Source: a virus
IMG/VR virus record: IMGVR_UViG_3300030060_007423
Span: 96,001 to 160,000 of that record
Reading direction: 5' to 3' (one strand)
DNA length: 64,000 nt
A model generated the notes under the pieces. It saw only the letters and a program-made list of their open reading frames with translations, had not been told where the DNA came from and searched no databases. Below, piece after piece: positions 38,940 to 40,930 of the stretch. Each line of letters opens with the position of its first letter. Within the stretch, counting starts at the first letter, position 1. Position numbers and translations under genes: made by a program.

Positions 38940-39219
38940 TGCGTCTGAACAAATAGACGACTTAAAAAGTGTTGGCGGTAGTGATGGACTATTTAAGGCA
39001 ATTACAAATATGGGTGAAAAGAATCTAGACTATATGGAAAAAATTGAATCAATAGAAAGACTAATGATTACAACAGAAAGTTTAGATTCTGACATTCATA
39101 AAAATGTTATTGTAAGTTCAAAAGAATATTTATTACAGAATGGTACATTAACCAAAAACATGATGTTGAGCTTAAACCAAATATATACATATTATAAAAA
39201 CATGCGAGGTAATATATGA
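38890..39219 (+). CDS. Hypothetical protein
   Basis: ORF. Confidence 0.55.
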   Translation: MAKANQHVKKVTERLLNASEQIDDLKSVGGSDGLFKAITNMGEKNLDYMEKIESIERLMITTESLDSDIHKNVIVSSKEYLLQNGTLTKNMMLSLNQIYTYYKNMRGNI

Positions 39220-39407
39220 TGATAATTCCAGAACAATACAAAAATGATTTGGATAAAATATATGAAAGAACTAAAAACTCTAATGAAAAAATGTTAATGG
39301 AATTCAAAAAGTATTTTATGAATGTTGAACCAAAGGAGTTAAATTCAGACTGGGCATGGGTAGCAACACAATGTTATCATGTATATAAAAATAAATCTGA
39401 CCGCTAG
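39216..39407 (+). CDS. Hypothetical protein
   Basis: ORF; 3' end overlaps the tmRNA acceptor piece. Confidence 0.5.
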   Translation: MMIIPEQYKNDLDKIYERTKNSNEKMLMEFKKYFMNVEPKELNSDWAWVATQCYHVYKNKSDR

Positions 39408-39625
39408 TACTTATGTCAGCTGCATTCTTGGACCCGGGTTCGAATCCCGGCATCTCCACTAAAACCCATTATGATATGGGGATGACACGGATTTGACAGG
39501 ATGATAAGAGCATAAGGAAGGTCACCGCAACAACTGGCGAACAAGTTGAAATGGCGATGGCAGCGTAGTACGCTCCCTGACCCGAACGGTATAAAAGAGG
39601 TCATGTCGTAAAAACCTCGGAGGAT
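39397..39625 (+). ncRNA. ssrA: Circularly permuted (two-piece) tmRNA, tag (A)GEQVEMAMAA
   Basis: T arm and 3' acceptor strand (CCGGGTTCGAATCCCGG CATCTCCA, 39433-39458) precede the 5' strand GGGGATG (39478); G3.U70; tag ORF at 39536-39568. Confidence 0.9.
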
Positions 39626-39643: not shown

Positions 39644-40387
39644 ATGAGCATAGAAACAAAATATTTTTCAATTGACGATTTATATAACGTAGATAACAAA
39701 TCTTCGTTTTGGAAATTTATAGAGGGCGAAGTAAAAGTTGCTTTAAGTAAATCTTCAATGTCAAGTTCAAAAAAAGCAGATGCTCTTAATCTATTTAAGA
39801 AACAATATATTAAAAAGTTTTTTATAAGACATACTAAATCACCAAGTGATTATAATAAACCTTGGGATTTAGATAAATATGACCTAGAGTCAATTAAAAA
39901 TAATACAGATGGTCAATGGGCACCACCACCTAATGCTGATGACTATAGGTTTGATTTAGAAAATGCTCAATATGTAATTGAAAAATTTATATGGATGCAA
40001 ATACACCCAGATGATAGAAGGGATTTATTTGATAATGATATTGATAAATTTGATGACTGGGTTGTAACATTATCTGAATCACAAATAGATGAAGTTGTAC
40101 AAAAAATTCAAAATGGTGAAAGACTAGGTGATCTTGATTATGAAAGTATAAAGGATTCACTATATGAACTTGATGATGGTACAATCAGAGTATTTAAGAT
40201 AGACGGATTAATGATTATGTCTTCACTAAATAAAGATTCGCTGGAAACAGCATGCGTAAAAATCTTTATGAAGAAAGGTATAACATTTAAGTATAGAACA
40301 ACTGAAAACTATAAAGGAAAAACTGTACACTCCTATATATTTAGGATTGACGGACGTAATGACAATAAAAATGACAATATGTCATAG
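39644..40387 (+). CDS. Hypothetical protein
   Basis: 247-aa ORF. Confidence 0.65.
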   Translation: MSIETKYFSIDDLYNVDNKSSFWKFIEGEVKVALSKSSMSSSKKADALNLFKKQYIKKFFIRHTKSPSDYNKPWDLDKYDLESIKNNTDGQWAPPPNADDYRFDLENAQYVIEKFIWMQIHPDDRRDLFDNDIDKFDDWVVTLSESQIDEVVQKIQNGERLGDLDYESIKDSLYELDDGTIRVFKIDGLMIMSSLNKDSLETACVKIFMKKGITFKYRTTENYKGKTVHSYIFRIDGRNDNKNDNMS

Positions 40388-40495: not shown

Positions 40496-40930
40496 ATGGG
40501 AAATTATTTTTTACATGAGCGGTTGTTTCCAACCGACTTATTTTTCAAAAACTTTTTTGATACACAAACTGAGTTTCAATCGTTTGCAGATGTTAAGCCA
40601 CAATATCCAGTTGATATTATGGTAACAGATTATGCACTAACGTTTGATATTGCATGTGTTGGTTTGGACAAAAAAGATATAACATTAGACGTTACTGATA
40701 ATACCTTACGGGTTATCTATGAAAAACCAAACATTGAATCAAATCCATCTGATGAAGATGCAGGTGAATATATCCATAGAGGTATTACTCGGAAGAGTTT
40801 TAATATGGGTTGGAAAATTGCACCACGGTATGATTTGAGTCAAATAGAAGCAGTTATGAAAAACGGATTGTTAAGTATAACAATTCCATTGTTTGAAGAA
40901 GCAAAACCAAAAACAATTAAAATTAAATAA
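40496..40930 (+). CDS. hsp20: Small heat-shock protein Hsp20
   Basis: YPVDI, YIHRGI..KSF and A.MKNGLLSITIP motifs; C-terminal IKI. Confidence 0.92.
   Translation: MGNYFLHERLFPTDLFFKNFFDTQTEFQSFADVKPQYPVDIMVTDYALTFDIACVGLDKKDITLDVTDNTLRVIYEKPNIESNPSDEDAGEYIHRGITRKSFNMGWKIAPRYDLSQIEAVMKNGLLSITIPLFEEAKPKTIKIK

Follow-up and report, generated by a model that had tools for sequence, protein, structure and literature searches.

tmRNA is the textbook RNA that rescues stalled ribosomes, and its circularly permuted form is usually assigned to three bacterial lineages and to mitochondria. Two-piece tmRNAs of Alphaproteobacteria, a betaproteobacterial lineage and some cyanobacteria were reportedly described by Keiler et al. 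in 2000, Gaudin et al. in 2002 and Sharkady and Williams in 2004. The Rfam clade models RF01849, RF01850 and RF01851 have been merged in RF04321, and the tmRNA database, which recognizes alpha, beta and cyano as its only permuted classes, includes 79 phage sequences as well as 48 unexplained permuted genes assigned to Bacteroidota genomes (PMC11915505, Table S2). Buchholz et al. (2022) reported 53 unique phage two-piece tmRNAs in 18,146 phage genomes, mostly marine (PMC9004378). The initial annotation of the DNA analyzed here gave a list of permuted ssrA genes that left out phages, and that list needs extending, given these published cases and the abundance of such genes in IMG/VR (at least 119 contigs, described below). 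The sole Bacteroidetes-phage entry marked 'permuted' in the phage survey, Cellulophaga phage phi4:1 (Table S1, PMC9004378), is not a precedent: we found it to be a 662-nt ARAGORN artefact stretching across tRNA-Tyr, tRNA-Ser and tRNA-Asn, with no RF04321 match.

The stretch analyzed as a whole, called the window, is 64,000 nucleotides long and covers positions 96,001 to 160,000 of IMG/VR virus record IMGVR_UViG_3300030060_007423. It carries a locus that we read, with a probability of roughly 0.8, as a functional phage-encoded circularly permuted ssrA gene. The features of this locus are as follows.

39398-39458, + strand: acceptor piece, 61 nt, CCA not yet added
39398-402, + strand: helix 2c 3' strand TGACC, in the acceptor piece
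39410-15, + strand: helix 2b 3' strand CTTATG, in the acceptor piece
39423-30, + strand: helix 2a 3' strand CATTCTTG, in the acceptor piece
39434-50, + strand: T arm of the acceptor piece, with covarying pairs
39451-57, + strand: acceptor 3' strand CATCTCC, in the acceptor piece
39458, + strand: discriminator A, last base of the acceptor piece
39459-39477, + strand: intervening sequence (spacer), 19 nt
39478-39524, + strand: 5' part of the coding piece, with the acceptor 5' strand, the D-loop analogue and the helix 2 5' strands
39478-84, + strand: acceptor 5' strand GGGGAUG, whose G3 pairs with U70
39485-96, + strand: D-loop analogue with UUUGAC, in the coding piece
39497-503, + strand: helix 2a 5' strand CAGGATG, in the coding piece
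39511-16, + strand: helix 2b 5' strand CATAAG, in the coding piece
39520-24, + strand: helix 2c 5' strand GGTCA, in the coding piece
39525-39535, + strand: single-stranded linker CCGCAACAACU, 11 nt, where pk1 would be, ending in the AACU resume context
39536-39568, + strand: tag frame GGC...TAG, with GGC resume codon, the 10 codons GEQVEMAMAA and a UAG stop
39559-39576, + strand: helix 5 hairpin with the stop codon (covariation; RNAalifold)
39586-39618, + strand: H-type pseudoknot, pk2-like, 3' of the tag (covariation)
39586-90 and 39605-09, + strand: pseudoknot stem 1, ACGGU with GUCGU
39597-601 and 39614-18, + strand: pseudoknot stem 2, GAGGU with ACCUC
39619-39623, + strand: conserved GGAGG after the pseudoknot in the alignment, the presumed rough 3' limit of the conserved RNA

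The acceptor piece, the ~19-nt spacer and the coding piece thus lie where the initial annotation had placed them. The CCA at the acceptor 3' end is only partly encoded, since ACU comes next. In the homologue alignment the spacer is the most variable stretch (17-22 nt in the family of relatives described below) and the T at -1 of G1 is invariant. No promoter or terminator matches that would define the ends of the two pieces were found in the surroundings of the gene; the next gene downstream starts at 39644. The first 10 nt of the acceptor piece are overlapped by a 63-codon open reading frame upstream (39216-39407). The tmRNA stretch has 49% G+C, compared with 33% in the window.

Two of the checks that had been suggested for the locus, ARAGORN and a covariance model of permuted tmRNAs, call a permuted tmRNA. 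ARAGORN reported one such gene in the window (tmRNA*) with the tag GEQVEMAMAA*, and in a whole-window scan the locus reached 65.6 bits at an E value of 2e-10 with the Rfam 15 model tmRNA_permuted (RF04321), whose gathering score is 47. When the locus was scanned locally with RF04321 the score was 66.7 bits, and the helix-2 pairing was the same three-part arrangement that had first been drawn by eye; nine relatives that were rescanned scored 63-78 bits. The order of 3' tRNA half, spacer and 5' tRNA half is that of the permuted genes of RF04321. The window gene did not reach the gathering thresholds of the clade models RF01849, RF01850 and RF01851, of which the best was beta_tmRNA with 48.1 bits against a threshold of 84, in a match that spans model positions 76-168 only and is confined to the universal tRNA-like part; the other clade models scored below beta. 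The hallmarks of a tmRNA are present: a GGGGAUG/CAUCUCC acceptor stem with G3.U70 and a discriminator A, a T arm with a GGUUCGAAUCC-type loop, GAC/GGAC joining helix 2a with no anticodon arm (Rfam alignment), and an internal tag frame that opens at a defined resume codon and closes at a stop within helix 5.

Viral contigs were scanned for a T loop and acceptor 3' strand followed, after 8-38 nt, by GGGGNTGA. The scan matched at least 119 contigs. ARAGORN calls a permuted tmRNA in most of these, which shows the short-spacer permuted gene to be common among viral contigs. Among the matches listed, ~24 viral contigs with 18 distinct sequences form a family with the window gene and hold it at the same syntenic position, with the neighbor genes in the window's order at 43-85% amino-acid identity and 83% mean column identity in the RNA alignment. 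This pattern fits vertical inheritance under purifying selection within one phage clade. Two members (L150 and L158) are not called by ARAGORN, and two subfamilies with in-frame insertions and tags of 36-37 codons (L093/L095/L124 and L096/L148/L180) are misread by it. A family-specific pattern that recovers 16 of the 18 distinct members had no match in bacteria or archaea, searched as one genome for each of 185,579 species, and within the data searched the family was found in viral contigs only. When the window gene was compared by BLASTN with 50,697 phage records, nothing matched, and a query from L146 likewise found nothing; a pattern for the coding piece that fixed its distance to GGC was also without matches. 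RF04321 found nothing in the nearest isolates immuto, Mel-JY01 and LR756508; the tmRNA is thus common in the clade but not universal. At 80 loci with homologues of the upstream endonuclease, no tmRNA was found except in the close relative L003/L004. A tRNA-rich locus (L002) proved to be unrelated, and ARAGORN makes no tmRNA call there.

The pairing was assessed on an alignment (A2) of 12 distinct sequences with 43 pairs and 500 shuffles. We found that 95.7% of cells were paired, as against 38-43% when partners were slid by 1-3 columns, and that 15 of the 43 pairs carried compensatory double changes; none of the 500 shuffles reached the observed values. The acceptor stem with G3.U70 and the three segments of helix 2 had been proposed from the single sequence, and covariation supports each of them as pairing. 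G3.U70 (U.G) is invariant in all 12 distinct homologues. Helix 2c changes from GACC/GGUC to AAUC/GAUU between homologues, with double changes in two pairs, and helix 2b and the T stem likewise have double changes in two pairs each. Helix 2a was recounted by anchor, MAFFT having misaligned it; it consists of 7 bp with a one-nucleotide bulge, is paired in 124 of 126 cells across 18 sequences and covaries at three positions. Helix 5 has two compensatory pairs (for example AGCG/CGCU to UGCC/GGCA, with the Ala codons kept). A hairpin at the stop had also been predicted, and it is present and covarying, with a stem of 4-7 bp (AGCG/CGCT plus GG/CC) and the stop codon in or beside the loop; the predicted 6-bp AGCGTA/TACGCT stem did not stand, as its loop would be 1 nt. 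The conserved pseudoknot at 39586-39618 was absent from the first reading of the sequence. Its stem 2 covaries in 4 of 5 pairs (GGGAU/AUCCC, GGGAC/GUCCC, GAAGC/GCUUC), and in its stem 1, which has one double change, pairing is 100%.

RNAalifold independently finds the T arm and acceptor stem, helices 2c and 5, and stem 2 of the pseudoknot. It also proposes another register in the middle of helix 2, which we rejected because this register mismatches two double changes that are compensatory in the CTTATG/CATAAG register of the initial annotation. Pairing of a TGACC at ~39579 with GGTCA was likewise discarded, the columns there not being conserved. Neither minimum-free-energy folding nor cofolding yielded the canonical fold, and the energy gained on dimer formation (-15.0 compared with -10.4 +/- 4.2 for shuffled sequences) was not clearly beyond controls. 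Integration into tmRNA genes often leaves phages with ssrA fragments (PMC9004378, PMC11590407), and on that ground one could propose that the sequence is a host-derived remnant without function, a piece of an attachment site or an artefact of assembly. We regard this as scarcely credible, given that the tRNA-like domain has both its halves and the tag is complete, that compensatory changes are seen, that the gene is absent from the bacterial genomes searched, and that it sits in a T4-like phage with conserved synteny around it. An artefact of assembly, which had been named in advance as the finding that would overturn the permuted order, is contradicted by the identical order in ~24 independent viral contigs from many metagenomes.

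The tag GEQVEMAMAA had been read from the resume context AACT-GGC, and ARAGORN arrives at the same tag in a frame that is conserved among relatives. In the family the GGC resume codon, GTT (Val), the second ATG and the closing AMAA are the same in every member, the Ala codons differ synonymously, and the stop codon varies between TAG, TAA and TGA. In 16 contigs and the window the tag has ten codons and reads G[E/A/T][Q/S/T]V[E/Y/H][M/Y]AMAA. Six contigs encode variants of 36-37 codons, in which insertions of 78-81 nt leave the tag frame open and each other frame has 2-4 stops. None of the tag strings was found in the literature searched. As judged from the aligned sequences, these patterns demonstrate selection on the tag reading frame, and we take this selection, together with the gene structure and its conservation, as established at that level.

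The same patterns bear on a further reading, that the RNA is a tRNA-like-domain decoy or inhibitor of host trans-translation, like the ORF-less tmRNA of mycobacteriophage DS6A, with a tag frame that goes untranslated. A phage tmRNA consisting only of a tRNA-like domain and inhibiting the host tmRNA is on record (cited in PMC11915505), and loss of pk1 might hamper tagging (PMC3968760). However, selection on the tag frame argues against a decoy limited to the tRNA-like domain: frame, AMAA ending and resume context are conserved, the in-frame stop lies inside helix 5, stops have been interchanged, and the 78-81-nt insertions stay open while the other frames close. We therefore consider a decoy very unlikely and return to a tagging tmRNA.

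The absence of pk1 had been suspected from the short distance between helix 2 and the resume codon, and the comparison bears this out. From G1 to the resume codon we counted 54-61 nt in the family, compared with a median of 95 nt and a range of 81-99 nt in 120 one-piece tmRNAs from Bacteroidota, and 11-14 unpaired nucleotides follow helix 2c in the family. By these lengths pk1 is absent from the family, and the structure retained according to covariation is helix 5 with one 3' pseudoknot. The two pieces of ~61+3 nt and ~146 nt add up to ~210 nt, a smaller figure than the 250 nt at which a 2005 paper put the shortest tmRNA with an open reading frame (PMC1168896). The first description of the locus as a circularly permuted, minimized phage tmRNA thus agrees with ARAGORN, RF04321 and covariation. 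pk1 is nearly universal in tmRNAs (Burks et al. 2005, PMC1168896), and E. coli tagging needs it unless a hairpin substitutes (review, PMC3968760). The family has neither pk1 nor a substitute hairpin, which counts against a functional reading; pk1 is not strictly defining for a tmRNA, since it is replaceable in E. coli (PMC3968760).

We also compared the message part of the gene with bacterial tmRNAs. Species genomes were scanned for GGGGNTGA, TTYGACAG and, 45-75 nt later, CTGGCGAA; the combination of the 5' end and CTGGCGAA gave at least 120 matches, of which ~116 among those listed are from Bacteroidota, and the Bacteroidota matches are standard tmRNAs of 365-413 nt. In the family consensus, CAATTAACT directly followed by GGCGAA, the 9 nt upstream of the resume codon are identical to a common Bacteroidota 9-mer. 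The family has the marks of the Bacteroidota type, namely GGC-GAA after ...UAACU or ...UAUCU and a 5' end with GGGGNUGA..UUUGACAG, but not the ~400-nt one-piece chromosomal gene with four pseudoknots. UUUGAC is present in all 44 Bacteroidota tmRNAs that were extracted full length and in 14 of the 18 family sequences counted; UUCGAC takes its place in most of the other viral permuted tmRNAs. Bacteroidota tags mostly end in ALAA, and two Cytophagales encode GETSYAMAA, which makes the AMAA ending native to part of the Bacteroidota. The initial annotation had regarded the tag ending as a departure from Bacteroidota tags, and these Cytophagales speak against that view.

The IMG/VR source record is 170.8 kb long with an estimated completeness of 80%, and the phage is T4-like, encoding a major capsid protein of the Gp23 family. 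The closest isolate by capsid is Flavobacterium phage vB_FspM_immuto (65% identity), followed by Microcystis phage Mel-JY01 (55%) and an uncultured 484-kb phage (52%), with Rhodothermus phage RM378 as a more distant relative. A gp6-like baseplate protein has the same top three relatives and is slightly nearer to the Microcystis phage (47% versus 42%), so that protein similarity leaves the host unsettled. A ClpP homologue falls in viral clusters only in ESM Atlas and gives no hint of the host. No SmpB gene was found in the 170.8-kb record, and host SmpB would therefore be required.

The match of the tmRNA message part and the capsid kinship to a Flavobacterium phage together make a Bacteroidota host likely, in keeping with the original assignment to a Bacteroidota phage, and that host is probably a marine member of the Flavobacteriia or Cytophagia. 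SmpB contacts bases upstream of the resume codon (PMC3968760); this would explain why a phage tmRNA has to match its host at the resume context, and it also means that the match could be convergent. If our reading is true, tag and resume context could serve to mark the host phylum of uncultured phages.

It was originally proposed that the gene arose by an independent permutation event in a phage. We give even odds to the more specific idea that a Bacteroidota one-piece tmRNA was permuted and shrunk within phages in an independent event. In a tree of the tRNA-like domain, built on 79 columns with no verified alpha, beta or cyanobacterial references, the family is separated from the majority of other viral permuted tmRNAs and sits inside a 70-row clade (SH-aLRT 94) to which all 39 standard tmRNAs of Bacteroidota belong. 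The tree is thus compatible with the proposal, but it also groups the family with another set of viral permuted tmRNAs, those with the tag ANSNQYALAA, UUCGAC and a GCA resume codon, in a 30-row clade (SH-aLRT 94). The main rival is accordingly descent of a functional gene from an older permuted lineage of aquatic phages, of alpha or beta type, whose message part was adapted to or recombined with Bacteroidota ssrA. In favor of such descent are the shared 30-row viral clade, the many unrelated viral contigs that carry compact permuted tmRNAs with a short spacer, and the place of beta_tmRNA as the best clade model at 48 bits; an nhmmer profile of the Bacteroidota 5' end gives the family no advantage in score over the other viral permuted tmRNAs, and SmpB contact with the resume context (PMC3968760) makes convergence under host constraint possible. 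However, the beta score is far under 84 and covers the universal tRNA-like part only, and the viral clade is nested in the 70-row clade with all 39 Bacteroidota tmRNAs, in a tree limited to 79 columns and lacking verified alpha, beta and cyanobacterial references. GGC-GAA, the 9-nt context, UUUGAC and AMAA are moreover all shared with Bacteroidota. We hold descent from an older lineage to be possible, if less likely than not. That three things hold at once, a further, independent origin of the two-piece form in phages from a Bacteroidota one-piece ssrA and not in a bacterial lineage, tagging by a ~210-nt RNA with neither pk1 nor a substitute hairpin, and sister tags of 36-37 residues, falls somewhat short of an even chance in our estimation.

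For the gene read as a functional permuted ssrA, we infer processing, charging, tagging and a benefit to the phage by analogy with known tmRNAs. A single precursor would be transcribed and cut by RNase P 5' of G39478; tRNA 3'-end processing would act after A39458, the CCA-adding enzyme would then finish the end, and the 19-nt spacer would be lost during maturation. The resulting 61-nt (+CCA) and ~146-nt pieces would stay paired through the acceptor stem (7 bp) and the three segments of helix 2 (18 bp). Host AlaRS would charge the RNA via G3.U70, and with host SmpB and EF-Tu the RNA would enter stalled ribosomes, where translation would resume at GGC 39536, append (A)GEQVEMAMAA and terminate at the UAG in helix 5. 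The AMAA-ended tag would probably direct the products to Clp-type proteases.

A permuted tmRNA in a phage is already known, and what is new here is the Bacteroidota type, the very small size, the lack of pk1 and the occurrence in viral contigs only. If the reading is true, permutation and extreme reduction also occur inside phage genomes, and the family lets one ask in a natural RNA whether frame selection can do without pk1, a matter so far studied only in engineered mutants of E. coli. In practice the finding carries limited weight, as phage precedents are published and Rfam's current model already detects the family.

Compared with bacterial two-piece tmRNAs, the locus has the same order of acceptor piece, intervening sequence and coding piece, joined by acceptor stem and helix 2, and it shares G3.U70, a tag frame that stops in helix 5, a reduced number of pseudoknots and a score above the RF04321 threshold. 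Unlike them, the window gene fails the clade-specific models, and the family lacks pk1, has a spacer of 17-22 nt and ~210 nt in total, uses a GGC resume codon in a Bacteroidota context, and is found in viral contigs only, not in the bacterial genomes searched. The aquatic T4-like myophage tmRNAs (Melnitz, pelagimyophages, cyanophages; PMC9004378) resemble it in having a large aquatic T4-like carrier, and like the phage tmRNAs of Buchholz et al. it is complete, comes with no phage SmpB and is common but not universal in its clade (PMC9004378). Those phage tmRNAs are alpha-type with A-N-D-type tags, whereas the window gene is Bacteroidota-type without pk1 and its clade is related to Flavobacterium phage immuto (PMC9004378); the tmRNA of Methylophilales phage Melnitz has a glutamine riboswitch (PMC9004378). 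With Bacteroidota one-piece tmRNA the gene shares the 5' GGGGNUGA...UUUGACAG, the resume context (C)AAUUAACU directly before GGC GAA, and a tag starting with G-E (GENNYALAA or GETSYAMAA), the Cytophagales tags also ending in AMAA. Bacteroidota tmRNA is in one piece of 365-413 nt with pk1 to pk4 (PMC1168896), whereas the window gene is permuted, about half that size and without pk1, pk3 and pk4. Its extreme reduction outside a bacterial chromosome is shared with the ORF-less DS6A tmRNA and with mitochondrial tmRNAs (PMC11915505); these have no tag frame, whereas the frame of the window gene is conserved and evidently selected.

A permuted tmRNA also lies, unannotated, in a crAss-like phage (Crassvirales, Bohxovirus):

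L329:572-761, permuted tmRNA, Bohxovirus sp. isolate record PV686213.1 (about 80.6 kb)
L157:4149-4342, permuted tmRNA, grouped with L329

The Bohxovirus gene scores 70.6 bits against RF04321, the Rfam permuted-tmRNA model, has the G3.U70 pair and a 16-nt spacer, and encodes the tag GNFNVVDYTCVA; ARAGORN, run on the isolate record, gives no tmRNA call for it. Like the window family, to which it is unrelated, this second Bacteroidota-phage lineage has a tag starting with G. Further compact permuted phage tmRNAs were found in unrelated viral contigs (L104, L141, L146, L189 and L110/L201), with the tags GEKQTQFAMAA, GDTVYNEMKMAA, GETLKMAA, ANNQEMLMAA and ANDNFALAA and, L146 excepted, RF04321 scores of 73-81 bits. 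Because a terminator hairpin follows the tag almost immediately in these genes, no pseudoknot is present 3′ of it.

Two other loci were not read as tmRNA:

L334:11919-12580, ARAGORN "permuted tmRNA" of 662 nt, Cellulophaga phage phi4:1 (NC_021788.1)
L002:7505-7563, T arm and acceptor-like end, IMGVR_UViG_3300032397_000008, 15 tRNA genes in the surrounding region

Phage phi4:1 has been entered as permuted in a published supplementary table (PMC9004378). The call covers tRNA-Tyr, tRNA-Ser and tRNA-Asn inside a 22-tRNA cluster and, with its 662 nt, three tRNA genes and no RF04321 match at that location, appears to be a false positive. At the L002 site GGGGGCTGA lies 30 nt further on, and neither ARAGORN nor manual inspection could read the site as a tmRNA.

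The Bacteroidota-type tmRNA 5′ end and CTGGCGAA resume context occur together in four genomes labelled otherwise, namely two Chloroflexota MAGs (L253 and L296, encoding GEEQTLPLAA and GEEQQLPLAA) and two Bacillota/Clostridium MAGs (L273 and L324), which could reflect mis-binning, mislabelling or a broader spread of this context.

Around the window tmRNA we located three genes or reading frames:

39216-39407, 63-codon ORF, stop TAG at 39405-07
40496-40930, Hsp20-family gene, 46.9 bits
43698-44345, ClpP-family protease gene, 113.9 bits

The ORF has no Pfam match and shares its final 10 nt with the start of the acceptor piece. Among the family contigs it is conserved only in the close relative L003 (84% identity), and in other members its place is taken by a conserved AT-rich box (ATATTTATA) that could be a promoter. 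The Hsp20- and ClpP-family genes both lie less than 5 kb downstream, the former syntenic in most family contigs and the latter present in only some (L003, L184, L196); they could be connected with the breakdown of tagged proteins.

Tags of 36-37 codons occur in two sister subfamilies of the window tmRNA, both in viral contigs:

L093:1636-1962, L095 and L124, long-tag subfamily 1
L096, L148 and L180, long-tag subfamily 2

Examples are GKQV...FAMAA and GKQVELAK...PALMAA. ARAGORN mis-calls these members as AKEQVFAMAA or an out-of-frame peptide; reading is open in the tag frame only, and 36-37 codons is unusually long for a tmRNA tag.
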